Origin: a virus
Reading direction: 5' to 3' (one strand)
Virus record (IMG/VR): IMGVR_UViG_3300025326_000029
Coordinates: 2,390-66,389 of that record
DNA: 64,000 nt
The notes beneath the pieces were generated by a model. The model saw only the letters and a program-made list of their open reading frames with translations, made no database searches and was not told the DNA's origin. Position numbers and translations under genes: made by a program. This document shows, piece by piece, positions 43,601-59,367 of this stretch; within the stretch, counting starts at the first letter, position 1; each line of letters opens with the position of its first letter.

Positions 43601-46600
43601 GTCGCGCAAGAACACACCCATACCGGGCAAAGAAAGAAGCTGCCGAGCTTTCTCCCTGAGGATTCCCAGTCGCGCTTCGTTGGCTGAAGCCTGCGCCGCC
43701 AAATCTGTTCCAGGCAAATTGAAAATACGCGCAATTGAAAGTCTCAACGATGCAGCCTGTTCTCTTATATCGATCGAGCGCGTTATTTTTGTAATCTGCT
43801 CTTGGAATAGTTCTGAAGCTATTTTTGCTTGCTCGTCGATATTCGTTAGAATCGCATCGCTAATTTTTCCTAGCTCGCCAGTGAGAGTTTCTAGTTCCGA
43901 CTTCAGCCTTGTCTTCGCTGTCTGAGTAAGCCCCTTCGAAGTCAGCTTTTGCTGTGTTTCTTCTATCAATCTGGCAGTTTTGTTGTGCTCGTTCTCGAGC
44001 AAACGCAGTTCAGCAATAAGGCTTTCAGATTGCTGTTCCAGAACTTTCGCTGTCGTTTTACCGAGGGTAGAAAGTACATCTGCGATGCTTCGACGACCAG
44101 AAAGAATATCTCGAGCTGCTACTCCTATATCCTTGATCTGCAAACCAGCTATACGTGCCTTCCTCTCTAATTCTCCACGCATCACTTCCAAATCTGCCCA
44201 GAAATCAGCAAGTCGCTGTTCTGCTACAGCAAAGAAGTTCGTCAGTGATCCGAGAAAGTTAAGAGCTGTTGGCTTTAGACGTTCAAGCTGTGAAAGAAAC
44301 TCTTCAATTGGAGCATCCAAGAATTGCTCAAAGCGCTCAGGAACTTTCAAGCGTGTCATTCGCTTTTCGAGGGCTTCCTTAATCGCTTTTGCTGTTGCAA
44401 GTCCACCAGAAGGGTCTGGTTCTCGACGAGAAGTACCAGTACCTGTCAAGTCTGCAATTTGTGCTTGTACCTGATCAAGCGCTCTCTTGTACTCTGTTCG
44501 TTCTTCTCCTGTAGTCTTTTTAACTTGCTGGCGAAGAGTAGTTTCAAAAGCTCGCAGTTGTTGTAGTTCAGTTTTGCTTGTGTCATCAGTGCGCTTGGAA
44601 TCACTAGTTAGAGAAGTAATACGTAATGCTACTTCTTCTAGTGCTCGATCGAGTTCGGTCAATAACTCGACATTACCCTTAGCTGCTTCCTCTCGACGCC
44701 GAAGAAATCCTTCTACTGATCGCAAAGCTTTTAGTTCTGCTTGTTTATTTCCTTTGATCGACGCTTCTAGTACAGCACTCCAGCGTTTTGGAGCAAGTTC
44801 CTCGACGCCTCTGAGTCCAATAGCTGTTTGTGTAATGCCGCCTGTAGACAGTGCGGTACCACCACCTGTAGGCAGTGAAACACTTGAAAGAGGCGGCGTG
44901 GTGGTCATTGGTGTCGTAAGTGGACCGGCGAGGTCGAGAATATTCTGGACATAGCCGCGAGCAGCTTGTGGAACCTTTTTCCCTACCGCATTAGGGCCAA
45001 GATTATAGGCTGCAAGAGCAAGGTCCCAACGACCAAATTTCTTGTGCAAACTAGCGAGATATTCTGCCCCCCAGTCGAGCGCAAAAGCTGGAGTTTCAGC
45101 TTGTTTACGAGTTACATTAGGATGGCTAGGAAGATGAATTTGAGCGAGGCCTACAGCTCCCTTCTTGGACATAACGCGCGGATCCCAAGCCGATTCCTGC
45201 GTAATAAGAGCTGTAAATAATTCTGGAGGAATGCCGCGTACTGTGGCAGCCTTTTCTGCTAAAGCGCGATAAACTGCCACCTGTGATGATTCTGCTCCAC
45301 CACCTGCAGGCGTAGCAGTATCACGAACACCAACATGAAGATGATCATAGTGATTTTGTGTATTAAAGATAATCTGATATTCACCAACGTCAAAAACGCC
45401 ACCCTTCCTTGCTCGCGCCCTTGCGGGGCTCATTCCTGCTGCAACAAGTGCTGTTTGACCAAGAAGAGTAAGCTGCTCGCCTTCGGCGGGAATATCAACA
45501 GCATTTCCTGTCCAATGTTGTGATACTCTATTAGATCCCTTTACTAATTTGCTATGGGATGTACCAGTTCCGATAGTAAGTTTCTGGTTGACCATTTCAG
45601 CTATTCGTTCTGCGAATGCAAGTGTCACATCTTTGGTGGAGACACCAGCGCGATCAACTGATGGAGCAATGGACAGTCTTGGAAATCGTTTTTCTAGTTC
45701 GGCGGCTTTAGTGCTTTGATTAGCTTGTCGTAGCGTTGCCTTCCAATACAGCTCAGCTGCTTCAGCTTGCTTGTCGAGCGCAATGCGCGCCCTGTTCATT
45801 GCTAAAGAAAAACTAATACTGTCTTCATCAGCTGTTTTTCTTAACGCTCGCTCGAGACGATCAAGTGTAGTAGTTGGTAGATGAGCAGCAATTTCAGGCA
45901 GCTTAGTGACATCCGTAGTTTTTCCTAAGACTCCTGTAATTTGCTTTCGTTCCGCTGCTCCTACAGCATATCCAGATTTAATTGTTTTAATAAGCGTGTC
46001 GAGAAAAACACGAGGTCCGCCAGGGACAAATTCGGCAACATTTGCGCCTTGTCCACGACGAATTGTTGCTATTACTTCTCCGGTTTCAGCAGTTTTTCGA
46101 AGCGCTCGCTCGAGACGATCAAGTTGTTCTGGCTTTGCTTGAGCAAGGCTTATCTTTCCTATTGTTTCTTGAAGGATCTTTCTTTCTTCGCTGCTTAGTT
46201 TTTCTCCAGCCTCAATACGCTTGAGGAGCGCTGTAATAAATGTACGAGTTTGACCACTATGAAACTCAGATACTTTTTTAGTTACATCAACGATCTGCAC
46301 TGCTTGTTGATCTTGTGTGGCGACAAAGCGAAGGAATGGAATTTGTAGCCAGTTTCTGACTTGTGTAGCTCTCTCTTCGCCTGGACCACCTGGAGGGATT
46401 GCCGCTCGTCCATAATCAACACTAGCTCCTGCCCCTGCCATTTCCTGATCTGCACCAGCTCGCGTAGTTCTCATCCATTCGATCAATCTGTCGTGATAGG
46501 TCTTGCCGTAAGCGTCAGCAGCCTCCATGCCATAGCTTTCAGCGTCCTGCGTCATCTGTGAGAGTTCATCGCCCCAAGCTGAGGCCATCTCTTCGCCTGT

Positions 46601-49564
46601 GTGTCTCAGCAGACTGACGCCGCGCTCGCGGAAGCCGTCGATCCAATCTTCAACACTTTGAAGTGCAGATTTGATCTTGCCGCCAATACCAGGAATCCAG
46701 CCTAGTGCTCGCTCCAGTCCTTCAACGAGCCCGCGTATAGCAAGCAGCATTGCGTAGATACCAAGATTTACAATGCCAAGGAGATTTTTCCAGAGATTAT
46801 CCCAGAGCACTTGTATACTCTGAATAATATTTGAGACATATAACTTAAATCTATCCCAATGTAGAATTATCTGTTCGATTGCTATTGAAGCTGCAAGTAT
46901 TAATGCTCCCCAAGCAGTAGCAACAAGTGCTGCCCGCCAAGCAGCTTTAACTGCACTCGCAGCGCGTATATTAGCTATTTGAGCAGCAGCAGCTTGTGCT
47001 ACCATGATATTTCCTGTGCGAATTGCAGCAAACTGAATTTGCGTCAATGCAAGTATTGCTGCCGCTTGCATTTCTCTAAATGCAGTTACTGTTGCAATTT
47101 TAGTAGTAATAATTGAAGAAATTGCTTTAATTTTCAAAGCAATCCAAGCTACGCCTACTCCAATAAGAGCAGAAGTCATCGCATACGCCATTGCAACAAA
47201 AGCAGCTTTAACTATGACGCTTTGTTCTTTGATCCATTCATAGAAATTAGTAAAAATTTTGAACTTATCTTCCAAAAGCACCAAGAGCGCAATAAATGAA
47301 ACAAATGGATTTCTCTTAATAACGTTAAACAGACCAAAAAACAAGAAAGTTGCAAGTTCAATACCTTTACCAAGCAGGGCTATAGCGGCAGCCCACTGAA
47401 GCGTTTCATTGGCCCATTTATTAGCAAGGAAGAAACGAGAAACAGTAGTAACAACGTTTCCGATTAACCGTGCTGCTGTAATCAATGGAGGAATCATTAC
47501 AGAATTTAAGAATTCACCGAATGCTACAACTTCATCAGGCTTAAATAGTTCTCCTGCGGCTCTTCCAATATTTTCTAATGTATGAGCAAAAATAAGCGCT
47601 ACTTGCTCAGCGCCTCGGAAGAATTCTTGAACAGCTGGACCGTTTTCTCGAATACCTTTTGTCCAGCGTTCAAACGCATTAGTCAGTCGTTCTATTAAAT
47701 TAAGCCCTGTGCGAGCACCGGCGTTAACGATTGCATCAATAAGATGGAAGAAAGCAGCAAAAAGATTTAGCCAGCCATGAACATGCACGGCTGCTTCTCT
47801 GAAGAAAGAAGTTAGTTTTTCGCCATCTTTAGCAGCATCACGCCAACGAGCAGTAAGTCGTTCAAACCCCTGTAGCAAATCTCTAATTAACGGTCCTGCA
47901 GCTACAGAAATTCTCAGTAAGGATTCAGCAATATTTGCAAATGCTTGTGCTACAAGAGGAACATTGTTCGCTGCTTCTTTGATCAATTGCCCCCATAGAT
48001 CACGCATCGCCGGTGTCGTCAATGCATCGACAACAAGCTTGATTGAATTTGCTAGCGCTCGAGCTAAAGACTCAAGAGATCCGATTAAGCGTGTATCGTC
48101 GAGTAGCTTTTCGAACCGAAGCAATGCTCCTTCAAGCGCTCCGACGATAATGTCTGTGATGGGGCGCCAAACGCGTTGGAAGTGCGTTTGCACTCGATCA
48201 AGCGTCGCTACAAGAGAACGTTCTCGAGTGCTGAGATCAGCTAGCGTTCGTCTAAGGTTCTCTTGTACAGCATTCTGATTCTCGGCAGCACGAGCAACAT
48301 TTCGCATTGCTCCTTCCAGCTGCCTCTGTGCTGATGTCGCACTTCTCGTTGCCTGTGCGATTCGCCTATCCACTGCTTCCAGCCGTTCGCGAGCTGCTAG
48401 AACAGCGTCAGATTCACGGATTCCTCGCTTAGTCGCTTCAGAGAATTCGCCTGCTGCTCGTTGCGCTGCGCCTCGAAGCCTGCTAGCAGAGATATCAGCC
48501 TCGCCAACACCTAACTGCGCTTGAGCGATCTCAACGGAGCCTCCTTCACGCAGAGCACGATGAAGGCGCAACCGCGCTTCCGTCTGCGTGAGAGCCGCTC
48601 CTTCTGCAGCCATCTGAGCTTCTCGCTCGCTACGAGCCAGTTCTTCGAGCTGCCGACGTGCTTCCTCTCGCGCTGCAATAAGTCCTTCTTGCGCGCGAGT
48701 TTGTTCTTTCTGTGCATCACGCAGGCCATCAGCAGCAGCAACAACACCCTCTTGCGCGGAAGCCAAAGAATCAAGCGCATCGCGCTGACGTTCAGCTGCA
48801 TCTGCAGTATCATCCGCAGCTCGTTGCTGCGACTGCTGTAGCAAATCAAATGCTTTAGTGACAGACTGAATACGATGGAGAGCTGTACCAAGAATTCCGA
48901 CAACAGGAACTAGCTGACCCACGATTCCTACTCCGACACCGGCCAGAGCTTTAGCGGCGATAATCGCAGAGCTAGCTACGGCAGTAAGAGCGCCAGCGAT
49001 TCCAAGAAGCATCGTTGTAATCGGTTGTACGAGCAGCAATCCGAATGCAATGATAAGGTTGGCGATATTGCGAGAAAGGCCAAATGTCTCGCCGCGATTA
49101 TCTCTTAAAGCTCTACCAAGATTTCTATGTCGTCCGGTAACACTTGATACAATCCCCCCATGATCAGTCAATATTCGATTAGTACGTTGTAGTTCCGAGC
49201 GAAATCCACGCAATTCAGATGTTTGTTGTCTAATCGCTCGCAATGTTGCAATCTGACTAGACATTACTTCTTCATGACGCTCCGTTGCTGTAGCGCCAGT
49301 TACTCGTCCTCTAAATCTATCTAGCGCTTCACCGATGCTTTCAACATTGCCACGCAACTGGCGCACAGTTTCGTTAAATCTATCGAGTACAACTCGGTTG
49401 CGCTCGACATCTACATCGCTTCCTCGAAGACCATCACGAAACTCTTCGAGAGATGTATGAGCATCTTTAGCTCCTTCGCGTACCTTGCGTAACCCAGGAG
49501 CAAGTTTGCTGGAGAAAAGGTCAACGCCGCGGATAATGACCGATATAACGTGTTCGCGATTTAT
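40667..49564 (-). CDS. Tape measure protein with peptidase-like and lytic transglycosylase domains; frame open 66 codons upstream of the track GTG (49366)
   Basis: ~2,900 aa helical with TM segments; SQHWTGNAVD..HYDHLH; QESAW..GAVGLAQ..ALAAYN. Confidence 0.93.
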   Translation of the reverse strand: MNREHVISVIIRGVDLFSSKLAPGLRKVREGAKDAHTSLEEFRDGLRGSDVDVERNRVVLDRFNETVRQLRGNVESIGEALDRFRGRVTGATATERHEEVMSSQIATLRAIRQQTSELRGFRSELQRTNRILTDHGGIVSSVTGRHRNLGRALRDNRGETFGLSRNIANLIIAFGLLLVQPITTMLLGIAGALTAVASSAIIAAKALAGVGVGIVGQLVPVVGILGTALHRIQSVTKAFDLLQQSQQRAADDTADAAERQRDALDSLASAQEGVVAAADGLRDAQKEQTRAQEGLIAAREEARRQLEELARSEREAQMAAEGAALTQTEARLRLHRALREGGSVEIAQAQLGVGEADISASRLRGAAQRAAGEFSEATKRGIRESDAVLAARERLEAVDRRIAQATRSATSAQRQLEGAMRNVARAAENQNAVQENLRRTLADLSTRERSLVATLDRVQTHFQRVWRPITDIIVGALEGALLRFEKLLDDTRLIGSLESLARALANSIKLVVDALTTPAMRDLWGQLIKEAANNVPLVAQAFANIAESLLRISVAAGPLIRDLLQGFERLTARWRDAAKDGEKLTSFFREAAVHVHGWLNLFAAFFHLIDAIVNAGARTGLNLIERLTNAFERWTKGIRENGPAVQEFFRGAEQVALIFAHTLENIGRAAGELFKPDEVVAFGEFLNSVMIPPLITAARLIGNVVTTVSRFFLANKWANETLQWAAAIALLGKGIELATFLFFGLFNVIKRNPFVSFIALLVLLEDKFKIFTNFYEWIKEQSVIVKAAFVAMAYAMTSALIGVGVAWIALKIKAISSIITTKIATVTAFREMQAAAILALTQIQFAAIRTGNIMVAQAAAAQIANIRAASAVKAAWRAALVATAWGALILAASIAIEQIILHWDRFKLYVSNIIQSIQVLWDNLWKNLLGIVNLGIYAMLLAIRGLVEGLERALGWIPGIGGKIKSALQSVEDWIDGFRERGVSLLRHTGEEMASAWGDELSQMTQDAESYGMEAADAYGKTYHDRLIEWMRTTRAGADQEMAGAGASVDYGRAAIPPGGPGEERATQVRNWLQIPFLRFVATQDQQAVQIVDVTKKVSEFHSGQTRTFITALLKRIEAGEKLSSEERKILQETIGKISLAQAKPEQLDRLERALRKTAETGEVIATIRRGQGANVAEFVPGGPRVFLDTLIKTIKSGYAVGAAERKQITGVLGKTTDVTKLPEIAAHLPTTTLDRLERALRKTADEDSISFSLAMNRARIALDKQAEAAELYWKATLRQANQSTKAAELEKRFPRLSIAPSVDRAGVSTKDVTLAFAERIAEMVNQKLTIGTGTSHSKLVKGSNRVSQHWTGNAVDIPAEGEQLTLLGQTALVAAGMSPARARARKGGVFDVGEYQIIFNTQNHYDHLHVGVRDTATPAGGGAESSQVAVYRALAEKAATVRGIPPELFTALITQESAWDPRVMSKKGAVGLAQIHLPSHPNVTRKQAETPAFALDWGAEYLASLHKKFGRWDLALAAYNLGPNAVGKKVPQAARGYVQNILDLAGPLTTPMTTTPPLSSVSLPTGGGTALSTGGITQTAIGLRGVEELAPKRWSAVLEASIKGNKQAELKALRSVEGFLRRREEAAKGNVELLTELDRALEEVALRITSLTSDSKRTDDTSKTELQQLRAFETTLRQQVKKTTGEERTEYKRALDQVQAQIADLTGTGTSRREPDPSGGLATAKAIKEALEKRMTRLKVPERFEQFLDAPIEEFLSQLERLKPTALNFLGSLTNFFAVAEQRLADFWADLEVMRGELERKARIAGLQIKDIGVAARDILSGRRSIADVLSTLGKTTAKVLEQQSESLIAELRLLENEHNKTARLIEETQQKLTSKGLTQTAKTRLKSELETLTGELGKISDAILTNIDEQAKIASELFQEQITKITRSIDIREQAASLRLSIARIFNLPGTDLAAQASANEARLGILREKARQLLSLPGMGVFLRDFLTAAGLNISALGLAEGGRVDAKPGGTPKLLGEGGYAEYVITTDPAQRSRMKLLVGHMLAEMGDRETTTRLVSAKSSPVQLLGLAEGGRVAAAAPAPKERSRERLDVRSQRVTEKLLDLASRESLRSSEGARLRFVARELTRSSRVGSAWAMERFASKTAVELATVARRQERTGENETALELRKLSSEIRRVSETRQIVQTTGSGLPKLAEGGRVAPHVAAASTSRTERRSSETTRHVRSVAEGLAELVDSGALKTSEASRLRLVSREFLRSATSETVATRPGVLARLARTVGGQLTQLSKRISIGQHRRFADTSEIRKQRRISEQRDEAKRVRKDEFSGRDFLKLEKLSANVSATARELVVLSRQVAKPSGLASGERVSSKPGGIPYLLGEGGYSEYVLSTDPRQRNRTLNLMRRFMIETGQVGQISNIYQTGRRKFEDMFSVPSGASPAIPFVMPSPQEIAKGIAAAVTLPSGGGRGPSAAAAGGASWTPGTPTLDVSTATSVGAPTQEQAESAQNDIVAVLREIAELLRDQKDLQEAANQERIDTVTRAADREISLLSVSQQIAQLTGNTVEQIRLVGQKSETLIKQSQGLSELFSLPGLTEDQTAQLTLALKQIDSQILQNNREIRQLQLDQVNRQSQVDLRSVESDIRLAQINEDQTAQISALNDKMSILISQRDQLRIISGQDLGNELAQETAQQIKDLDVDIVSIVSEIRELGGSGAINKEAERSLRLNSIVFRIAELNQDQVGQITALNEKNTILVKQQTGLRELLESSRTQAERERLSDAIMQLDLDILENSKQLQALQGGQLQTFSSRAWQWFRQAVFTGMGGLLTQFQVPPQAETTQATESTSASALTKSTATSPVMLVVEGINDAMQTVGTSIDKFAETISSNIELISNNQFYLPGRSAVGAPANEMVGDMNLRTDMFIDQRYIPSSSDNTNINENLTLNITSPTEVADPVYLAKRIAFERKTRR

Positions 49565-49575
49565 TTTACTACCGC

Positions 49576-50064
49576 CTAAGTTTGATCGACGTCATTATCT
49601 CCACCATATGGCTTGGTGCGTAGAGCTTCTAGCTCTTCTTCGCTCAGTTTTTCATCAACTTCTGGCATATTAATTGCTGCAAGGAATGGATTATTCTCAT
49701 CTCTTTCTTCTTCGCGAACAGCTCCATAAAGAGTAGTTAGTGCTTCTTCGTAATGCTCATCAATGCGTCGCAACATCTCTCCGCGCAGATCTTTTTTAGA
49801 GGAATCATAATTTGGATTTGCATAAAGTCCTGTCACCATTGATTCGCGTCTAACATGCATCTCCTCTGCTACCTCTCTTCGAGAAAAAGCGGCATAAAAC
49901 GATTCGAAACGACGCCAATACCATGTAAGCAGATCCTCTACTGTCTCGCCATGCGAGGCTGAGTACGCTTCGAGCGCGTCGATCGCCGTGATTCTCGGTT
50001 TTCCTGTTGCGGAGTGATCCCTCTCACTCGCTCGATCATCGGTTGAATCCGTTCGACGAAAAAA
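49576..50064 (-). CDS. Tail assembly chaperone, -1 frameshift extension (lambda gpGT-like)
   Basis: -1 frame open from slippery T TTT TTC (50064-50058) through GGAAAAC (50004-49998) to stop at 49576. Confidence 0.75.
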   Translation of the reverse strand, partial: FFRRTDSTDDRASERDHSATGKPRITAIDALEAYSASHGETVEDLLTWYWRRFESFYAAFSRREVAEEMHVRRESMVTGLYANPNYDSSKKDLRGEMLRRIDEHYEEALTTLYGAVREEERDENNPFLAAINMPEVDEKLSEEELEALRTKPYGGDNDVDQT

Positions 50065-50534
50065 GTCTTCAACACATCCATATTCTGAGCTACGAATGTT
50101 TCTAAGACTGCGAATCCTTCGTCGTCAGAAAGACCGCCTTCATCTGGATGCAAATCAAGTAGATCAAAAAATAGCTGACGTTCATCTCGAGGAACGCCTA
50201 ATGCAAGTGCGTATAGTTCGCGGATAAGTTCAGGAGCATAAGTAAGTAAATGTCCTGCTACTCCTAAAACTCTATCAACATCGCTACTTGTCTCACCAGT
50301 GTTCTCTATCACGTCAAAGACATCGTCGAATGAAACACCTTCTTGTCGCGCTTTCACCATCATGCGTCCAAGTAGACCAACGAGTTCAAGCTTTCCCATA
50401 TAGCTAAGTGGGCGCTGACGGTATGTTCGTTGTAGTCCTGATGGACCAAGTAGAATCTCCCTAGTTTCAACTACGGGAGAAATGCTAGCCAGCGTTTCTG
50501 TAATATTCTTTACCGCTTCGCTGCCCTCAGTCAC
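49938..50534 (-). CDS. Tail assembly chaperone (gpG-like)
   Basis: Position upstream of TMP; slippery sites near the 3' end; AGGAG RBS. Confidence 0.8.
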   Translation of the reverse strand: MTEGSEAVKNITETLASISPVVETREILLGPSGLQRTYRQRPLSYMGKLELVGLLGRMMVKARQEGVSFDDVFDVIENTGETSSDVDRVLGVAGHLLTYAPELIRELYALALGVPRDERQLFFDLLDLHPDEGGLSDDEGFAVLETFVAQNMDVLKTFFVERIQPMIERVRGITPQQENRESRRSTRSKRTQPRMARQ

Positions 50535-50544
50535 GTTTCTCCTC

Positions 50545-51075
50545 TCAAAATACTCTTGGTATAAAGAAGAATTTTCTATCCAATTCTGCGCTCAGCATAC
50601 GTAATCGCGCTGGTACATAAGTACTGCCAACGACCATAATTGCTTCTCGCATAAATGGGTTTGGTTTCTGTCCACGAACCCAGCGCGCGTATACAACTTC
50701 TCCGCTTGGCTTCACGAATCTCAGCACGCCCCCAGGACGCGCAGGAAAGATTGGTGTTCTATGCGCTCCATAAATACCTGTGCCTTCGTGATGCCAGATC
50801 CCGTGACGAGGATGGCGCCGCAGCCCTACTCGCAACTCCCACGTAGATGGTCTTAACTTCGTGACTCGAGTCTCATCAATCCCGCGTTCAACAAGTGCTC
50901 CACTCCGTTTACCAGCTCGACGACGAGCTTCTTTTCGAACCTCATCGCCTATGTCTTCCAATGCTTTCCTAATCAGCAGACCACGTTCATACTCTCCTGT
51001 TCCACTCAGTTGTCTTCCGCCAACGCCGCGGCCGAAGAATGCTGTACCACCTATTTCAATAAAGTAATCTGGCAT
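50545..51075 (-). CDS. HK97 gp10-like neck / tail completion protein
   Basis: RSGAL, HEGTG, VRGQKPNPFM. Confidence 0.8.
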   Translation of the reverse strand: MPDYFIEIGGTAFFGRGVGGRQLSGTGEYERGLLIRKALEDIGDEVRKEARRRAGKRSGALVERGIDETRVTKLRPSTWELRVGLRRHPRHGIWHHEGTGIYGAHRTPIFPARPGGVLRFVKPSGEVVYARWVRGQKPNPFMREAIMVVGSTYVPARLRMLSAELDRKFFFIPRVF

Positions 51076-51088
51076 AACTATTTATTGC

Positions 51089-51123
51089 ATAAAGGGAGCG
51101 CCCGCCTTGTGGCGGACGCTCCC
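51089..51123 (-). terminator. Intrinsic terminator after the major tail gene
   Basis: GGGAGCGTCCGCC-ACAA-GGCGGGCGCTCCC-TTTAT (13-bp stem). Confidence 0.8.
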
Positions 51124-51132
51124 GGTCTTGCT

Positions 51133-51216
51133 GAGCCCTACCATCAAGGTAATCCTCCCGTCTGACTGCCTTTGCTAGTCTGCGGGGAGTGAGTGCGCCT
51201 TTAGCTGCACCCGCTC
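51133..51216 (-). ncRNA. Putative structured RNA (three hairpins in a multibranch arrangement)
   Basis: GGGTGC/GCACTC, CTCCC(C)G..GACT/AGTC..CGGGAG, TTACC/GGTAG, closed by GAGC/GCTC; no credible ORF. Confidence 0.5.
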
Positions 51217-51269
51217 TATATCGTTTAGTTTTTTGCGAAGAACAAATGCATTGTGGGTTCAGTTAAGTA

Positions 51270-51866
51270 CTAGTCCTGGTTGAAGATGACTCCCAACCGG
51301 TCTTTCTCGTCAGCGATTGACGAGTCAGCCAATGCACGGAAGCGCACAGGAATCGTCTGCTGATCACCAGTCTTCGCATACGTAATCGTTGATTCTTGCG
51401 CAGCTCGCTGCGCCTTCCTAAACACGAATGCACGCAGCTTGTTATTCGTTCGCTGATGAACAACAGCCATCATTCTCCGCGTATAGGTACGCGGTTGACC
51501 AAAGCCCATCCGTGACTCACCACCGCTGGTGGAAATCGTTCCACCCTCCCAGGCAACCTGGAACCTCGCTAGCGTCACTTCAGCAAGTGCAGTTGCAATC
51601 GAGGCTTCCCATGAAGTCGGCTGTGAATCAATTTCGCCGTAGAGCTGATCAACGTCGAAAACTTCTTCCGTATTGTTGACAGTGATTGCTACACCCGTCT
51701 TCGTTGCGCCAAGATCGTTCCAGTTTGTCATCGCGTTATAGTTAGACAAGTTGATGACCTGACTGATGTTGGACGGAAAGCTCACTGTCAGTGCAGCCCA
51801 TAGAAAGCGGGCGGCACCACGAATGAAGGTATCATCTGAGATATCTACTCGATGGAAATCAGGCAT
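51270..51866 (-). CDS. Major tail (tube) protein
   Basis: WNDLGATKTGV, VDQ, LAEVTL, IPVRFRAL; GAGGAGG RBS. Confidence 0.88.
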   Translation of the reverse strand: MPDFHRVDISDDTFIRGAARFLWAALTVSFPSNISQVINLSNYNAMTNWNDLGATKTGVAITVNNTEEVFDVDQLYGEIDSQPTSWEASIATALAEVTLARFQVAWEGGTISTSGGESRMGFGQPRTYTRRMMAVVHQRTNNKLRAFVFRKAQRAAQESTITYAKTGDQQTIPVRFRALADSSIADEKDRLGVIFNQD

Positions 51867-51927
51867 ACTCTTTACTCACCTCCTCTTTTACTCTCGCTTG
51901 TTAGCACAAATTTAGTCATACAACTTC

Positions 51928-52509
51928 TCAGAGTAATACTGGTTTATAGACCATATAACGAAGTCTAGCCCCTTGCCAGAACCACTCCGTTCCTACCCCC
52001 AGCTCTTCCGGCCTTGTAAAAACATCACTCAACTCAACTGTCGGCGTATTCACAATCCTAACCACTAAACCGTCTAAAGTGGCGCGTTCAGAGAGAACAC
52101 GGTGAATTGCTTCTAGTGTGCGCTGGGCTCTGCTGTTTACTTCTTCTTCGCTCGTGAGCGATTTGACCATAACTTCTACATCGAGATTAACTTCGAACTC
52201 ATTTATATGATCAGCATCACTATCTGCGAATGGCGCCGCTCTATAAGCAAATGCACAAGCATTTGGATAAAGATCAACGGAGGCTTCAACTAGTGAAGGA
52301 ATTCTTCCGTGATAGAAACTTCCGTCAGGAATTGGTTCGAGTTCGACTGAAAAGGCGGGAATTCCCATATCAGTTGCAAACTGTCCATCACGAACTGTCC
52401 ATTCAGCTTCAATGTCGGACAAAGCATCATTCAAATCCTGCTTTAAAACGACAATTGCTGCTCTACCAATTACTTCAAGCCCAAGTTCAGTACCGACTAG
52501 CATGGTCAT
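51928..52509 (-). CDS. Tail terminator-like protein
   Basis: Position upstream of major tail; YPNAC..., TLDGLV. Confidence 0.65.
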   Translation of the reverse strand: MTMLVGTELGLEVIGRAAIVVLKQDLNDALSDIEAEWTVRDGQFATDMGIPAFSVELEPIPDGSFYHGRIPSLVEASVDLYPNACAFAYRAAPFADSDADHINEFEVNLDVEVMVKSLTSEEEVNSRAQRTLEAIHRVLSERATLDGLVVRIVNTPTVELSDVFTRPEELGVGTEWFWQGARLRYMVYKPVLL

Positions 52510-52511
52510 CG

Positions 52512-53048
52512 CTAAGTTATCGATCCAATGACAGCGGTAGTTTCCACAACTTTATCATCGAACGGTCCGCCGAAGTCACGCGGGTCAGGAGTTATCTTAT
52601 CTCCTGAGCCAAAGCCGACGGCAGGCGTGATTCCTGTCAATCCACCTCTCATCACGAAGTCGTAAAGTCCGCGAAGTTCGATGAAATCGGCTTTTGTTTC
52701 TTCTGCGAGTCGTTTATAGAGTTCCCACAACTGCGCTCGTCTTTCAGGAAACATAACTCGCTCATTCCGTGTGCCTGTTTCAATATCGACGCTTATTCTC
52801 TGATTACCCCAAAAGTCGATTGCAGGCGGAATCAGTCGCATTGCTGTCAGCTTGCCCAAAAACTCCAATAACATCGGATCATATGAAGTCGCTTCTAAAG
52901 AAGCTGCTGGAGCTGTTGCAAACAGCCGAAACTTGACATAATCAGCATGAGCTTGAAACCCATCAACAGGGCCAAACGCAGTCGCCCTTAGCATGGCATC
53001 ATAGCTCGCTGGAATATATCTGCGGACTATGTCAAGTACGGCTCCCAA
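52512..53048 (-). CDS. Head-to-tail adaptor-like protein
   Basis: Position after capsid; helical, 178 aa. Confidence 0.55.
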   Translation of the reverse strand: MGAVLDIVRRYIPASYDAMLRATAFGPVDGFQAHADYVKFRLFATAPAASLEATSYDPMLLEFLGKLTAMRLIPPAIDFWGNQRISVDIETGTRNERVMFPERRAQLWELYKRLAEETKADFIELRGLYDFVMRGGLTGITPAVGFGSGDKITPDPRDFGGPFDDKVVETTAVIGSIT

Positions 53049-53054
53049 TTGTAC

Positions 53055-53201
53055 CTACTTCTTTGCCTCGTCTTTATTTAGCTTCTTGGGCTTGGGCGGC
53101 TCGGGCTGCCCTGCCCGCCGACCTGTTTCTCCAGCAACAGCTTCTGCTTCTGGAGTCAGATGACGCGCAGGACTTGATTCGTGCGCATCTCCTTCTGCCA
53201 T
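53055..53201 (-). CDS. 48-aa protein (not in ORF track)
   Basis: Own translation: MAEGDAHESSPARHLTPEAEAVAGETGRRAGQPEPPKPKKLNKDEAKK; AAGGAGG RBS, TAATG overlap. Confidence 0.6.
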   Translation of the reverse strand: MAEGDAHESSPARHLTPEAEAVAGETGRRAGQPEPPKPKKLNKDEAKK

Positions 53202-53653
53202 TATTCCTCCTTGTTCGCTTTCTTCTCGATTGCATTTGATAGTGCTTCCATGACCGTGATGCGCTGCTCATGTATTTCTTCGTGCGCTTTTGCTGCAGCT
53301 AGCTCAAGATCATCCCAGCTAGAGATTGCTTGCAAAATCTCAGCTGCCTTCATCAAATCATATTCAGGAGGTAGAAGCACTTCTCTCGAGATTCGTTCAT
53401 TTTGTTGCGCGATCTGATCAGCTTCCTGATCGGAAACCTTCTTGATCAAACTACGCACATGTGCATCACCTTTGTTATAAGCCTCTTTGTAAAAAGAAGC
53501 AATCAGCTGACCAGTGATAACAGTACCAGCTGCTCGAAACACATTACGCGTTTCTTCACGCCCATCATCAAACTGTTGCAATGGTTGAGGTAAATACGTA
53601 TCAATAAGTACTTGATAGTTATCCATCGTGTGTTCTTCTGTCGTCGTGCTCAT
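53201..53653 (-). CDS. Head-associated hypothetical protein (start MSTTTEE)
   Basis: ATGA overlap with the capsid stop; small helical C-terminal domain. Confidence 0.65.
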   Translation of the reverse strand: MSTTTEEHTMDNYQVLIDTYLPQPLQQFDDGREETRNVFRAAGTVITGQLIASFYKEAYNKGDAHVRSLIKKVSDQEADQIAQQNERISREVLLPPEYDLMKAAEILQAISSWDDLELAAAKAHEEIHEQRITVMEALSNAIEKKANKEE

Positions 53654-54723
53654 GCGATCTTTGCCCAAACGAATGTCTCCGGCATCAACAGCCGAGGAAT
53701 TCTGGCCGAGGCCAGCCGTAAGAAATGCGTCTTGCTCATATGATCAAGCATGACTTCAGCTTGCGTACCGACCCTTGTTGCAGTCGTGTTGTATCCAGTT
53801 GAAACAGTCACTGGACCATCCAGCGTTTCCGCAATCCGCTGTCCATCGAGCACGTAATCAGTAGTTAGGAGTACGTGATCTTCAGGCAGATAGCGCGTTA
53901 CCTGAGAAGCAGCTTCTCCAGTGACACCAACATCGCGATAGCCCTGATCGTAGATGACAACATCAACCTGCGCTGCGAAGCTCTGGAAGACCTCAAGAAT
54001 GAGCTGCTTAGTCGGACGCTTGGGATATGAACGCGGCTCGTTCCATGTAACTATTTCCTTGATCTTCGTATTGCGAATCAAATAATCCCAGACCTTGGAA
54101 CCCATGTGCAATCGCGTACCATAAAAACCGCTATCATCAGCGATCTTTTCTGACCACGCTTGAACATCGGCAACTGGATCAGCATTAGCAACATCCGACC
54201 AAAGAGTCGACGCTGTCGGCTGATGTCCTGCGGGGAGCCCATAATCAATATGAAGCTTGTCCCCAGTCGGATAAGTAATAACCAGAGCGCCAGAAAAAGC
54301 TGCCCAGCGCATCGCCTCTGTGAGACGCTCGTTGCGCAGCCGTGCAATCTCGCCTCTAATTACCAACTCGTTCCCGGACGACTTTCGCACATTCGGGTCG
54401 GAAGAGTTGAGCTTCCGCCAGTCTTCCTCGTCGATCTGCTCCATTTCGTCCAAAAGCACCAGCCCGATGATTTCTTCGCGCCACGTTAGCGCTGTCTTGA
54501 ACAGCGGCGGCGTAGCGGCCGGAGCACGGAACTGACCCTTACCGAATGCCTTGACATCAGCTACACGAAGCTTCGCCTGCATTTCCTGATGCGGCGTGAG
54601 CGGAGCGATTACATCACCCAGCCTAACACCGTCCCTTGTTTCCGTTTTTCGCTGAAGCGGCTTGGTGATTACATCAGTTAGGGTCGCTTGATCCCACAGG
54701 TCGAAGTCGATAATATTAGCCAC
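53650..54723 (-). CDS. Major capsid protein (lambda gpE-like family)
   Basis: E.MRW.AFSG, IDYGLP, WSD.ANADP..D, YLPEDHVLL; GGAGG RBS. Confidence 0.9.
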   Translation of the reverse strand: MANIIDFDLWDQATLTDVITKPLQRKTETRDGVRLGDVIAPLTPHQEMQAKLRVADVKAFGKGQFRAPAATPPLFKTALTWREEIIGLVLLDEMEQIDEEDWRKLNSSDPNVRKSSGNELVIRGEIARLRNERLTEAMRWAAFSGALVITYPTGDKLHIDYGLPAGHQPTASTLWSDVANADPVADVQAWSEKIADDSGFYGTRLHMGSKVWDYLIRNTKIKEIVTWNEPRSYPKRPTKQLILEVFQSFAAQVDVVIYDQGYRDVGVTGEAASQVTRYLPEDHVLLTTDYVLDGQRIAETLDGPVTVSTGYNTTATRVGTQAEVMLDHMSKTHFLRLASARIPRLLMPETFVWAKIA

Positions 54724-54742
54724 GGTTTACTCACCTCCTCCC

Positions 54743-55144
54743 CTACTCGAAGTTGTTAAATGCCCGCAATGAGGCACCATCTGTACCTTCCATGATTGCA
54801 CTGAGGTACAGCGTGAAGTTGACAAGTGCTTGCGTCGCAAAGACGCAACCGAAGAAGAACATAGGCGCAGGCTCCGAGGAGGCCGTGTTCCTAGACAGTA
54901 GATCAACGGGCCTTGCAAGAACCCCGTCGATTTTTCCTGCTCCCTTATATTCAACATGCTTATCGACATTTGTTGCTGAAATACGCAATAGCGTCCCCGC
55001 AGGTACGACATACCTACTGCCATCTGCAGGAATGTTAAAGTCCATCGCATCAATGACGATCGACTTTTTAGCACCAAGACCAACAGGAAATTTCAAGATT
55101 TCTTTGTCGTCCCATTGTGCTGACTGTTGCACGTTAAAGGGCAT
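54743..55144 (-). CDS. Head decoration protein
   Basis: Between scaffold and capsid; VVPAGTLL..GVL. Confidence 0.75.
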   Translation of the reverse strand: MPFNVQQSAQWDDKEILKFPVGLGAKKSIVIDAMDFNIPADGSRYVVPAGTLLRISATNVDKHVEYKGAGKIDGVLARPVDLLSRNTASSEPAPMFFFGCVFATQALVNFTLYLSAIMEGTDGASLRAFNNFE

Positions 55145-55160
55145 TCACCTCACCTCCTCT

Positions 55161-56963
55161 CTACTCTTCCGCCAGGCCCATTTTGTCGGCAATCGAAGCC
55201 TTGATCTGAGTTACTCCTGCTTCATCCAGACCAAGATATTCCGCTGCTTCCGCTTCTCCATGAAGGAAGGCGTGTGCGCGGAATGTCTTCTCTGCCTCTG
55301 TCAGATTCTCTTCTAGCACCCCCACAGGAGGCGGCGTATTGTCGTTATCGCGATCTGATACCGAGCCTTCAGTCAGATTGACAAAAGCGTCATCAGGGAC
55401 CGAATCCATGATCCGTTCGACGACATCACTTAACGTCAACTCTACTTCTGTCCGAGAACGTCCGTTCTGCTCTGTAAAGTTGAATGTTCTCTCGCCATCA
55501 TCAGCCATCAGCATCTGTCTCGCGATCTCGACTGTCGCGGGCGGGAACTTTCCTTGCCAACGCCCGACGAGCTTCTCTACGCGATCTTCCTGAACGCGTG
55601 CGCGAAGATTCAGCAATTCTTCATGCATTTGCTGAACTTGCTCTTCTGTAAACTGAACTTCTGTACTACTCACTCTTGACTCACCTCCTCGGGAGTTGCG
55701 TGTTTTCTTGACGACATAAAGCTTTTTTACAGGTTTTGGAGGTTCAACTGGCTCTTCTTCTTCCGAGAGCACCAGTGAAACAACTTCTCCTTCAGTCATA
55801 TTAGCGCTACCAAACGGAACTAATCCGCCGATCCATGGTTTGTTTGTGAGTGCAACATGATCAATAACGGCACCAAATTGTTGTGCCGTCTCTTTGTTCA
55901 AATAATCAAAAACAATTCCTGCGCTTGTATTAGCAATTGTACCTCGTTTCACTTTACCTTCGATATCAGGTTCAGTAAAACGTGGCTTGGCGCGAAGTAT
56001 TGCAATCTTCTTTCCTGTGTTCGGATCTTCACGGTCAACAATGGCTAAATCATCAATAAAGCCTGTATTTTCTGTAACTTTGTTATCATGTGACGTTGGA
56101 ATCGTTACATGCTGAATAGCGCCAGCTTTAAAATTGTTTACAAGTTCTTGAAGCGAGACAATACTTTTCTTCCAGTCTGATGGCCCATCTCGTCGTACAT
56201 GGAACGGAACAGGAACCGGCTTCTGCCCCGGACCAGGGCGCATTTTGAAAGTGCCCTCGCGAAGGATTTCTTTCCACCCATCTTCGCTTTGGGTGCCTTC
56301 GAAATAGAACTCGCTGAGGCCACCTGCCTCAGAAAACGTGGCGTGACCAGAAAAGAAATCGCAAGACATTTCTGGCGTCACGTCATCACGCCAAAGCGCA
56401 CATGTAGCTGGCGTTTCTTCAAATGACTGTCTGAACCACCTACACGCAGCACATGACGTCTGCGGCATGTCACCCATACGGTAGTTCGCTACATCTGGAA
56501 TGGCAGAGGTAGGATCATCACTATCAGCGAGCATGGCGGCGATGAGTTCATCGTCGAGTGAGAGAAGCGCCTCCTCCTGCTCTTCTGTCAACTCAAGGCC
56601 GATCTCGTCGACAAGAGCATTGAACTCGGCCACTTCTTCAGGCGTCGGATCTTCGCTGAGGCTCTTTTTACGTTCGTCTCCACGCCACTTGGTCGTCCCA
56701 CGAATAAGATCCTTAAGCACCGCACAGGTTTTCTGAGCGCGATCTGCTCCAAAACGCTTCGTGTTGTCTCGTATGCAACTAGTGAAAGGATGTCTCTTTC
56801 CAGCATAGAAGCGCAGGAGCGGTGAAAGTTTCTTGCGTGCTTCTGGCCCAACAGTCTTCGCGGAGAAGAGCGCGACAGTGAGATAGGCATCTGCCTCCTC
56901 TTCTGTAAACACTAACGGTTCCCAGTCTTCGGCATTCATTTGACTGTCAAGAACGCTCGTCAT
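55161..56963 (-). CDS. Capsid maturation protease (Mu gpI-like) / scaffold fusion with extra N-terminal domains
   Basis: SH, NTSAG, HVALTNKPWI; acidic coiled C-terminus. Confidence 0.8.
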   Translation of the reverse strand: MTSVLDSQMNAEDWEPLVFTEEEADAYLTVALFSAKTVGPEARKKLSPLLRFYAGKRHPFTSCIRDNTKRFGADRAQKTCAVLKDLIRGTTKWRGDERKKSLSEDPTPEEVAEFNALVDEIGLELTEEQEEALLSLDDELIAAMLADSDDPTSAIPDVANYRMGDMPQTSCAACRWFRQSFEETPATCALWRDDVTPEMSCDFFSGHATFSEAGGLSEFYFEGTQSEDGWKEILREGTFKMRPGPGQKPVPVPFHVRRDGPSDWKKSIVSLQELVNNFKAGAIQHVTIPTSHDNKVTENTGFIDDLAIVDREDPNTGKKIAILRAKPRFTEPDIEGKVKRGTIANTSAGIVFDYLNKETAQQFGAVIDHVALTNKPWIGGLVPFGSANMTEGEVVSLVLSEEEEPVEPPKPVKKLYVVKKTRNSRGGESRVSSTEVQFTEEQVQQMHEELLNLRARVQEDRVEKLVGRWQGKFPPATVEIARQMLMADDGERTFNFTEQNGRSRTEVELTLSDVVERIMDSVPDDAFVNLTEGSVSDRDNDNTPPPVGVLEENLTEAEKTFRAHAFLHGEAEAAEYLGLDEAGVTQIKASIADKMGLAEE

Positions 56964-57270
56964 CGCCTCCCGTTCTCTCTTTCAATAAGTCGAATACAAG
57001 CTTGTCCGCTGGCGCGAAGCACCAACGGCAATCAGGGCATTTGTAAATGGTTGTCGTCTCTTCAGCGAATTCTTCGATGAGCTGCATTGGCACATACTGA
57101 AGAATGTCGTGCGGCTTCTTGCATCGTGGGCATACCATATTACGCCCCTCAATGAGACGCCGACGCTGATGAACACGACGTGTCACATGTGCCATCGTTC
57201 CAACGATAGGTTTATTACCGTATATGTAAGCGTGGCAAAAGTTACCTTGTTGCCATAAGAATTTTTTCAT
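56947..57270 (-). CDS. Zn-ribbon protein (likely start MAHVTRR, ~57195)
   Basis: CPRC...CPDC. Confidence 0.65.
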   Translation of the reverse strand: MKKFLWQQGNFCHAYIYGNKPIVGTMAHVTRRVHQRRRLIEGRNMVCPRCKKPHDILQYVPMQLIEEFAEETTTIYKCPDCRWCFAPADKLVFDLLKERTGGDDERS

Positions 57271-57356
57271 GCTATAATAAATATCAAATTAATACAGGCA
57301 TGGCTCGTGCCCGCCTAAATCTTTTTCACGAGCTAGCTCCCACCAAGACGAGGAGG

Positions 57357-57752
57357 ATGGAGTTGAAACTTTCAACTGCCACGCTTGCTGCGTTCTTAGC
57401 TGTTTTTTTAAGTCCAGTTGCTGTAGCTGAAAACTATGGAGGCAACAGCGAGCAAGAACAAATTCGTATGAAAGAACTAATCTATCAATATTTCGGTAAT
57501 GGTTGGGTAGGACGCGTAATGGTATGCATAGCCCGCAAAGAAAGCGGCTTGAATCCTCGCGCCACAAATTATTATGATACTAATGGCGGATCTTACGGAT
57601 TGATGCAAAATAATGCTATCTGGAGAAGAGAAAACGAAAGCGTACGCTCTTTTGCGTTTCGCATGCAGAACCCACACGAAAGCTTACGCGCCGCCCTCAA
57701 AACTTACCGCGTTCAAGGCTTGCATGCTTGGACGACAGCTAGAGCATGCTAA
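57357..57752 (+). CDS. Secreted lysozyme-fold / lytic transglycosylase
   Basis: GAGGAGG RBS, signal peptide ending AVA, CIARKESG.NP.A, SYGLMQ, AW..C. Confidence 0.85.
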   Translation: MELKLSTATLAAFLAVFLSPVAVAENYGGNSEQEQIRMKELIYQYFGNGWVGRVMVCIARKESGLNPRATNYYDTNGGSYGLMQNNAIWRRENESVRSFAFRMQNPHESLRAALKTYRVQGLHAWTTARAC

Positions 57753-57761
57753 GCTAGATAG

Positions 57762-58298
57762 ATGCCAGCGCGAGGAGTCCTTCAAGGCCAACAGCTTCAA
57801 CCAAGAGAAATCGCTTCCATCTGCTATGCAGCAGGATGGCGCGACAAGAATCTGATTATTGCCGTCGCTGTCTGTTTAGCCGAATCGCAGGGCTACATCA
57901 GAGCGTACAACGATAATCTCGCCGCCGACGGAGAGACGATCCTCAGCAGAGACGTTGGAATCTTCCAGATCAACATCCCCGCTAATAAGGTTGGCACTCC
58001 AGAAGAAGAACGCCTTTATAATCCACACTACAATGTTTCTCGCGCTCGTACGCTATTCGAAGCGAGAGGGTTCCAACCTTGGGTAGCATACAACACAGGG
58101 ATTGCGCTCAATCCTGCTTGGTGGCGCTGGAGCGAAAAGCAATCAGCATGGGTTGGGACGGGGCGTTATGTTCATCGTGCAACTCGCGGCTGTGCAAATT
58201 TTTATGCGTTAGAAATGAAGATCGCATCACCAGACGATGTTATGCTCGATTATCGAGCAATACCATCCAAACCTCAAAAGCCACCAGGAAGCATTTAA
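57762..58298 (+). CDS. Lysozyme-fold / lytic transglycosylase (endolysin candidate)
   Basis: AVAVCLAES, DVGIFQIN, NP.YN, GFQPW. Confidence 0.85.
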   Translation: MPARGVLQGQQLQPREIASICYAAGWRDKNLIIAVAVCLAESQGYIRAYNDNLAADGETILSRDVGIFQINIPANKVGTPEEERLYNPHYNVSRARTLFEARGFQPWVAYNTGIALNPAWWRWSEKQSAWVGTGRYVHRATRGCANFYALEMKIASPDDVMLDYRAIPSKPQKPPGSI

Positions 58299-59062
58299 GT
58301 CCAACCTATAGTCTTGTTTTGAGCTAGACGCTCTTGATGGAGCGAATTCCAATAACGAGCAAAAGAAGCTTGCTTCCTGTTAGAGCCATTTCGCATCGCT
58401 CCTTCTTTGCGTGCTTGTCTGAGTAATACTATCGCTCGATAAGCAGTATTTTTACGTATATTATGTTGATATTGTAGTCGAGTCCAGATAGTCTTACTAA
58501 AACCAGCGCGGCGACATATTTCTGTGTGACTAAGACGCTGCTCAAGCTCTATAAATACGAATGCGATCTTAGATATTGAAATAAAACCGTGGTTGTCTAC
58601 GTGTGTCTGTACTCTAGGAAATAAGACACAATCTTTGCAACGTGTGAAAAGCTTCCCGGTGCGATACGTTCCACGATGAACATAAAAAGACTCAAGCGGA
58701 AGTATTTTTCCTTCAGGTGGATGAAGCGGGCCTGTGCATAATTTTCCGCCGTTCTTGTAACGTTTCAGCATTATTGATTGAGGAATAAATAATTCCCCTT
58801 GCCGCGACAACTCTGAAGTACTCTTCCAAACGCTATTCTCTATCAGCTCTGACGATAATAATGCGCGAGCTATGCGTAAAGAGATGTAGCTACCTTGAAC
58901 AGTGTAACTGCGAACAGTTGTCTCAGGAACATTATGTTCCCTTGACACTCTCGCCCAGGTGCCATAACGCTCATAAAGAGCGAACAGCTCATCCTTTACT
59001 GGCTGACTTATCCGGGCGTAGATGCGAGACTCATTGACAGCACCATCCATACTTACTGCCAA
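58295..59062 (-). CDS. Multi-HTH / Zn-finger DNA-binding protein
   Basis: N-terminal HTH, CTGPLH..LESFY..RCKDC, second HTH. Confidence 0.65.
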   Translation of the reverse strand: MAVSMDGAVNESRIYARISQPVKDELFALYERYGTWARVSREHNVPETTVRSYTVQGSYISLRIARALLSSELIENSVWKSTSELSRQGELFIPQSIMLKRYKNGGKLCTGPLHPPEGKILPLESFYVHRGTYRTGKLFTRCKDCVLFPRVQTHVDNHGFISISKIAFVFIELEQRLSHTEICRRAGFSKTIWTRLQYQHNIRKNTAYRAIVLLRQARKEGAMRNGSNRKQASFARYWNSLHQERLAQNKTIGWT

Positions 59063-59367
59063 ATTACATAAACTCCCTGATCAATTCCAGTTGGATGAGA
59101 TAAGTATCCTAGCGCATGGGCTCGTATCACGCAAGTAGCTATATTATTTCCTTCTAAATTATTTTTTATTTCTTGAATCGTATTATAAGCATTTGAACGG
59201 CTAATCAACATCGTTGTTGCGATCTGTTTTACAGACATTCCACTTGCGTAAAATGCGAGTAGTTGTGCTTGTTTTCTTGTTAAGATGCCGCGACTGCGGA
59301 CACTCGGCCGGAGCCTGGGGATAGTTCCCGGAAGAGGTCCAGCCAAGATGAAGCAAGCTTCTCCCAC
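59053..59367 (-). CDS. LuxR-family HTH regulator
   Basis: LTRKQAQLL..ASGMSVKQIA..ISRSNAY..IKNNL. Confidence 0.8.
   Translation of the reverse strand: MGEACFILAGPLPGTIPRLRPSVRSRGILTRKQAQLLAFYASGMSVKQIATTMLISRSNAYNTIQEIKNNLEGNNIATCVIRAHALGYLSHPTGIDQGVYVIWQ

Follow-up and report, generated by a model that had tools for sequence, protein, structure and literature searches.

A covarying pair of RNA hairpins precedes a terminator-type hairpin downstream of the tail-tube gene in a group of uncultivated phages

Hairpins and terminators are common after the tail-tube genes of bacteriophages and are usually dismissed as operon punctuation. Hairpins that bind proteins typically show a bulged A two to three pairs away from a small, A-rich loop, as in the MS2 coat operator and the boxB elements of lambda and P22. 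Small RNAs derived from 3' untranslated regions (3' UTRs) usually take the form of a structured RNA that ends in a terminator hairpin, and a conserved RNA, the Mu-gpT-DE motif, follows the gene for a major structural (head) protein of a phage. In Rfam this motif is RF03012 (name and accession as given in PMC7657543). In the siphovirus SPP1, stem-loop terminators are described as delimiting the late gene clusters (PMC6316719). The put RNAs of phage HK022, in the account of PMC9378689, are about 70 nt long, form two stem-loops, stand ahead of terminators, are placed after the early promoters and need no protein. A 2023 survey of the IMG/VR database has reported 8495 unnamed 'DNAVirus_X' structured-RNA candidates, 1241 of them with a predicted terminator (PMC10690425).

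In this paper we describe a two-hairpin RNA motif in a 64,000-nucleotide stretch of viral DNA, the whole of which is referred to as the window. As in the SPP1-type terminators, so far as PMC6316719 describes them, a G/C-rich hairpin with a T-run occupies a spacer of the late structural operon, after the gene for a many-copy protein. Unlike a plain terminator of this type, the hairpin is preceded here by a covarying pair of bulged-A hairpins that is conserved in sequence and inherited with the tube gene. The likeness of these hairpins to the MS2 operator and to boxB is one of shape only; the elements studied here are carried by double-stranded DNA phages, and boxB has a loop of five bases whereas the loops of the two-hairpin motif have 3-4. 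The candidates listed in PMC10690425 come from the same data source and are the same kind of object, and, as they are presented there, may already include the motif.

The window makes up most of a 66-kb IMG/VR record with an estimated completeness of 70%, and is present in 13 sequencing runs, all of them of DNA and all from soil and sediment. Positions 50400-52000 were compared by DNA similarity with deposited phage genomes (n=50,697) and gave no match, and a search of GTDB for related prophages, with each species represented by one genome, gave 89 pattern matches, none of which was confirmed.

All genes around the element are on the minus strand. The tail-tube gene (major tail protein, 198 aa) occupies 51270..51866 (-), with the RNA element in its 3' UTR, and an ORF for the major head protein lies upstream of it. 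An AlphaFold2 model of the tube protein (mean pLDDT 84.2) was compared by Foldseek with the PDB and gave 34 matches at E <=0.001, led by tube proteins; the top matches were those of phages Douge, Bxb1 and JBD30 and lambda gpV (E 4.7e-7 to 2e-4). Against BFVD the model gave 127 matches at E <=0.001, named 'major tail protein', with a best E of 2.5e-10. The ORF upstream of the element is thus assigned the tail-tube fold on its predicted structure. It matched no Pfam family at E up to 0.1, and the flanking ORFs likewise matched none. The tube-gene ATG is preceded by a strong Shine-Dalgarno sequence, AGAGGAGGTGA. An extended Shine-Dalgarno block (about GGCCGAGAGGAGGTG) is common to the tube-gene 5' UTRs of the related loci L002-L087, the corresponding block of the window, at 51867-51927 (-), being AGAGGAGGTGA; in A/T-rich loci an A/T-rich stretch with -10-like words stands ahead of this block. 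The tube gene may form a highly expressed unit of its own.

Downstream of the element the next gene, of 176 aa (50545..51075, -), encodes a protein that is weakly of the tail-completion or HK97 gp10 type (phrog_5, E 6.7e-9) and that is 28-30% identical to the corresponding ORFs of loci L010 and L022. Its start is 13 nt from the TTTAT run that follows the terminator-type hairpin, which leaves no room for a promoter of its own, and a gene placed directly after such a hairpin is therefore read from transcripts that pass it. Farther downstream are ORFs of 198 and 94 aa, then an ORF of 2899 aa (8.7 kb, 40667-49366, -) in the tape-measure position, then a gene for a Dit-like protein. The 2899-aa ORF is presumed to be the tape-measure gene by size and position, and if it is, its length implies a very long tail. 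The gp10-like ORF is downstream of the tube gene in the window, in L010 and in L022; in HK022 the order is reversed, and the gp10-family gene precedes that for the major tail protein.

On the minus strand the element reads as follows. A spacer of 53 nt (51217..51269) separates the stop codon from hairpin 1, against a usual 13-23 nt in homologous loci, and GAGC (51216-51213) forms the 5' strand of a proposed closing helix. Hairpin 1 (51191..51212) consists of GGGTGC (51212-51207), the apex AGCTAAAGGC (51206-51197) and GCACTC (51196-51191); its fold has a 6-bp outer stem, GGGUGC/GCACUC, a bulged A, inner G-C, C-G and U-G pairs and an AAA loop. After a single A (51190) comes hairpin 2 (51155..51189), with the outer 5' arm CTCCCCG (51189-51183), CA, the inner arm GACT (51180-51177), the apex AGCAAAGGC (51176-51168), AGTC (51167-51164), AGA and CGGGAG (51160-51155). 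It folds with an outer CUCCC(C)G/CGGGAG helix, an inner GACU/AGUC helix, a bulged A, G-C and C-G pairs and an AAAG loop. Hairpin 3 (51138..51152) is made of TTACC (51152-51148), TTGAT and GGTAG (51142-51138), and GCTC (51133..51136) is the proposed 3' strand that would pair with GAGC. The terminator-type hairpin with its tail spans 51089..51123, as GGGAGCGTCCGCC (51123-51111), a loop ACAA, GGCGGGCGCTCCC (51106-51094) and TTTAT (51093-51089). Its stem has 13 pairs, one of them G-U, with an energy of -29.2 kcal/mol, and its short-run tail, UUUAUGCA, has 4 T in 8; the hairpin passes a looser terminator scan and is absent from one that requires 5 T in 8.

A reading made from the sequence only, before any search, had drawn a multi-hairpin RNA fused to this terminator. 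All of the strings that it quoted are present on the minus strand, and when 51089-51220(-) is folded alone its drawing is reproduced exactly: three hairpins, the GAGC/GCUC helix and the 13-bp terminator, at -66.1 kcal/mol (z -6.5; 0/200 shuffles as stable). The full 194-nt spacer has a best fold of -75.3 kcal/mol (z -5.4), in which the 53-nt spacer offers a pairing partner for the 5' side of hairpin 1 and a G-U-rich helix with upstream sequence displaces both hairpin 1 and the closing helix. Pair probability in this context is 0.23 for hairpin 1 and 0.00 for the GAGC/GCUC helix, and is above 0.88 for the inner stem of hairpin 2, most of hairpin 3 (0.88-0.97 for four pairs) and the terminator, whose stem reaches 1.0. 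The closing helix is not supported; it forms only when the element is folded alone and shows no conservation. Of the multi-hairpin RNA that had been drawn, hairpins 1 and 2 are conserved, and the four-way junction is confined to the window. A cloverleaf of tRNA or tmRNA type was rejected, as ARAGORN found 0 genes in the window and the closing helix has a probability of 0.00 in context.

Relatives were gathered by tube protein and then by tube-protein alignment (5, 29 and 52 loci). Among 87 loci, 9 are without the 3' end of the gene, and the other 78 gave 58 distinct downstream sequences. The same two hairpins, with different stems and nearly fixed tips, follow soon after the stop codon in homologous spacers, and the motif is present in 27 of the 58 distinct loci encoding tube-protein homologues. 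The tips have the consensus A-CGC-AAN-GCG in hairpin 1 and A-GC-A(A/G)AN-GC in hairpin 2. Both hairpins share one design: above a variable stem comes a wobble or otherwise non-canonical pair, then a bulged A, then 2-3 G/C pairs capped by a loop of 3-4 nt that is rich in A. The gap between them is usually 0-1 nt, and the distance from the pair to the terminator-type hairpin is usually about 20 nt and is 44 nt in the window. The two similar apical motifs that had been remarked on in the window are thus the conserved core of the two-hairpin loci. In the homologous loci as read, nothing corresponds to hairpin 3 or to the closing helix, although L045 has a different hairpin at that place; hairpin 3 is an insert specific to the window between hairpin 2 and the terminator, and by comparison of these loci only hairpins 1 and 2 and the terminator appear as conserved parts.

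For the covariance model R1, which has 69 positions and two hairpins, a seed of 23 sequences was aligned and its structure was written by hand. The seed sequences, chosen by eye and by regular expression, make up 23 of the 27 loci, and the model found full-length matches at E <1e-6 in 27/57 sources, four of which (L022, L029, L030 and L045) are outside the seed. In the window the match, with flanks, is at 51147..51216 (-) and scores 44.9 bits. The matched sequences range in G+C from 0.32 to 0.70.

Covariation was measured on a model-made alignment of 26 sequences and 19 pairs. Paired cells made up 82.6% against 65.8% in shuffled alignments, and 17/19 pairs had changed on both sides. The covariation score was 0.539 against 0.223 when shuffled (0/500 as high), and fell to 0.09-0.16 when the partners were slid by 1-3 columns. 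An alignment made by MAFFT only gave 82.4% paired cells and a score of 0.517. The helix of hairpin 1 was 92.8% paired, with 8/8 pairs changed on both sides; the inner helix of hairpin 2 was 83.5% paired, with 5/7 pairs covarying, and its outer helix was about 60% paired (60.6% in the model-made alignment). RNAalifold, unaided, recovered hairpin 1 and the apex of hairpin 2. The apical G-C and C-G pairs of hairpin 2 are invariant in 26/26 sequences, and the bulged A does not vary either; this points to a constraint beyond pairing alone. G-U cells numbered 32/494 (summed by hand from the covariation table), and since these would be A-C mismatches on the other strand, it is the sense transcript that folds. 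A leave-one-out model, R3, built from the 25 other sequences, found the window element at 36.7 bits (E 4.1e-9), the next best score in the window being 8.0 bits, which makes the window a true, if divergent, member. Conservation and covariation, which the sequence-only reading had proposed to look for, were found for hairpins 1 and 2. The structure is real; selection acts on it in the sense strand, and it is passed on together with the tail-tube gene.

A literature search brought up no account of an RNA element that follows the gene for the major tail protein. Rfam 15 was searched over positions 50500-51900 of the window at E up to 10, which gave two matches, both to the terminator stem only and far below the gathering scores, and over 9 homologous loci at E up to 5, which gave two unrelated matches elsewhere. 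The statement that the RNA belonged to no recognised family agrees with this, as no Rfam 15 family, EAR and the known small ribozymes among them, matches the element in the window or in the 9 loci. Mu-gpT-DE, which gave no match in these searches, differs in both gene and fold. An exact 26-mer of hairpin 1 had 0 matches in IMG/VR. As an RNA motif the two-hairpin core is well supported, and Rfam 15 does not contain it.

The association with the tube gene is also seen when the search starts from the RNA. A pattern of the two tips found 49 stretches in IMG/VR, 16 of which pass the model, and in this pattern scan all 16 are on contigs already reached through the tube protein. A looser two-apex pattern found at least 119 stretches in IMG/VR; among the matches listed, 2/80 passed the model. 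The 66-kb record holds a single copy, and apex words elsewhere in the window are in no excess over shuffles (9 vs 10.3; 6 vs 5.8). In loci of the L022 type a 240-aa ORF separates the terminator from the gp10-like gene, and the motif still adjoins the tube gene. This ORF (L022 2221-2943, +; MFRRIHKGPLG...) matches no Pfam family and is also found in L017, L028-L030, L047, L054 and L056.

In a tree of the tube proteins, two-hairpin loci fall on both sides of the midpoint root, and loci with one hairpin, with a plain terminator or with no spacer (classes assigned by reading the spacer sequences) are nested among them, with 7 changes for the two-hairpin label. This nested distribution indicates that the element is old, is inherited with the gene and has been lost repeatedly. 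The existence of relatives with one hairpin, a plain terminator or nothing shows that the element is dispensable, and since some have the terminator only, the boundary works without the hairpins. In L071 and L072 an ORF begins directly after the tube-gene stop, in place of the RNA motif; it contains ...EPDFLVP...IEVNGC..HGC.EC..., which we take by its look to be nuclease-like, and it may be a selfish insertion at the tube-gene junction.

Coding explanations for the spacer were rejected. The longest small ORFs in the spacers of 20 loci are of 0-34 aa, in inconsistent frames and with none in 2/20, which rules out a conserved small ORF, and tandem stops in most loci speak against a read-through or frameshift extension of the tube protein; in the window, the sole further long ORF of the minus strand in this part reaches no farther than 51263, which is 7 nt beyond the stop of the tube gene. 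The window has a 20-codon ORF (MVGLSKTGSVRHKAGAPFMQ) at 51082-51144 (-), with GGAGG nine bases upstream, which runs through hairpin 3 and the terminator in the part specific to the window.

A terminator-type hairpin after the tail-tube gene had also been recognised from the sequence, and the 13-bp stem, with its probability of 1.0, is preceded by the RNA as described. Its placement is general in the family. Among the two-hairpin loci, 23/27 have a hairpin with a T-rich tail after hairpin 2, and the T-tails of homologues are mostly clearer than that in the window; of the other 4/27, 2 end too early and 2 have the hairpin but no T-run.

We hold with moderate confidence that the element, an uncatalogued RNA in the 3' UTR of the tail-tube mRNA, would be a factor-binding module at an operon boundary. 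This reading is favoured because invariant loops, a bulged A and apical pairs sit on stems that change freely. One tube-protein family has retained this additional module, in which the loop bases and a bulged A do not vary, while the G+C of the motif ranges from 32% to 70%, and tips that stay fixed over such a range point to specific recognition and not simply to stable folding. The invariant positions, in the bulged A's and the loops, would form a recognition surface for a phage protein, a host protein or RNA polymerase, and the module would set the fate of transcripts where the tube gene gives way to the genes downstream: a share of them would end here and be stabilised as abundant tube-protein mRNA, and another share would continue into the genes up to the presumed tape-measure ORF. 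If a partner, whether protein or polymerase, were found, it would show how these phages come to have tube protein in large excess over the products of the tail genes downstream, and the motif would be a new small RNA module through which termination or the fate of an mRNA is controlled.

A possible but rather unlikely alternative is that the hairpins protect the 3' end passively or form an RNase processing site, by which the tube-protein mRNA would outlive the rest of the operon transcript. Such a role would agree with the position of the element, immediately behind a gene whose ribosome-binding site is very strong, with the retention of hairpin 1 alone or of just a plain hairpin in some relatives, and with the stem-loop terminators that delimit the late clusters of SPP1 in the description of PMC6316719. 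A block to exonucleases depends on stability and not on sequence, however, yet what is invariant here, on freely changing stems and in motifs of widely different G+C, are the loop bases, the bulged A and two apical pairs, and the much stronger terminator hairpin at -29.2 kcal/mol already gives a block. If the element were only a stabiliser, it would be a well-supported new entry in the catalogue of RNA families and little more.

The factor-binding reading may be set beside a bolder one, in which the hairpins are a processive antiterminator RNA like HK022 put or Bacillus EAR and bind the elongating RNA polymerase from the nascent transcript. We consider this unlikely. The hairpins would engage RNA polymerase as it comes up to a checkpoint terminator; modified polymerases would pass this and the later stops of the long tail operon, and unmodified ones would stop, leaving extra tube-protein mRNA. 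Size and placement fit, as the element, like putL and putR as described in PMC9378689, consists of two adjacent hairpins, about 60-70 nt in all, and immediately precedes a terminator; downstream is an ORF of 8.7 kb, and there is no promoter room after the terminator. HK022 put, a possible model for the action of the element, needs specific polymerase contacts. On the whole HK022 genome R1 matches only a 13-nt fragment (9.6 bits, E 0.36), in addition to which the element matches no Rfam 15 family. The put sites described in PMC9378689 follow early promoters and are not in a late operon, relatives with only the terminator or with no motif exist, and positions 45000-60000, which take in part of the downstream operon, hold 14 terminator-like sites against 14.2 in shuffles. 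It is doubtful that the motif would be a new class of nascent-RNA processive antiterminator, like put and EAR in action, unrelated to them in sequence and placed in a late tail operon. If it were, it would both determine by how much tube-protein mRNA is in excess and allow the very long presumed tape-measure ORF to be transcribed, and its carriers would be uncultivated siphoviruses of soil and sediment, a widespread group.

It is very unlikely that the hairpins and terminator are released together as a small RNA of about 110-130 nt, derived from the 3' UTR and acting in trans through the conserved loops. The structured, terminator-ended form and the conserved loops agree with such an RNA, but the loops are of 3-4 nt, no conserved complementary partner was found for them, and the element occurs as a single copy, in strict association with one gene. 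Reading of the loci gave no consistent partner for the hairpin loops in either the tube-gene 5' UTR or the terminator.

The weakest explanation is that of the sequence-only reading, an attenuator that senses a protein or a ligand and in which the partner of CUCCC(C)G is the CGGGAG either of hairpin 2 or of the terminator. The repeat on which it was built does exist in the window, at 51160-51155 in hairpin 2 and at 51124-51119 in the terminator 5' arm. Mutually exclusive folds were not obtained: forcing CUCCC to pair with the terminator GGGAG costs 17 kcal/mol (-59.5 vs -76.5) and leaves a 7-bp G/C hairpin still standing, and the terminator stem forms with a probability of 1.0 in the full spacer. 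The repeat together with the CTCCCCG arm occurs in 0/26 of the other two-hairpin loci, as read, and duplexes between upstream RNA and the terminator 5' arm, scanned in 20 loci, gave no consistent gain over shuffled arms (z +1.1 to -3.0). The conserved bases, moreover, are in the apical loops and not in a junction or pocket. A self-contained terminator/antiterminator switch on the CGGGAG repeat is not supported, a ligand-sensing attenuator is unlikely, a protein-sensing role is possible, and the model built on the CUCCC(C)G pairing is highly improbable even with the different loop-terminator complementarity that one subclade of 11 loci displays.

In these 11 loci (L002, L003, L004, L010, L014, L024, L025, L040, L042, L046 and L081) 6-8 pairs can form between the (C)AGAGGC loop of hairpin 2 and a GCCUCU(G) segment located in either the 5' arm or the loop of the terminator. 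The duplex scan found this in 10/11 of them (z -0.1 to -3.0), and in L024 the complementarity, of 7 pairs, was read from the sequence. Other subclades carry no compensation that matches (C)AGAGGC/GCCUCU(G). A separate complementarity is present in L034, L070, L073, L077, L078 and L085, between the 3' half of hairpin 1 (AAAGCGGNCC) and a segment after hairpin 2 (GGNCCGCUUU). The long helix formed by these two segments replaces hairpin 1 in the best fold of 3/6 of the loci, and a change from A-U to G-C between L070 and L078 keeps it; it could be a real alternative fold, in the L034/L070 class only.
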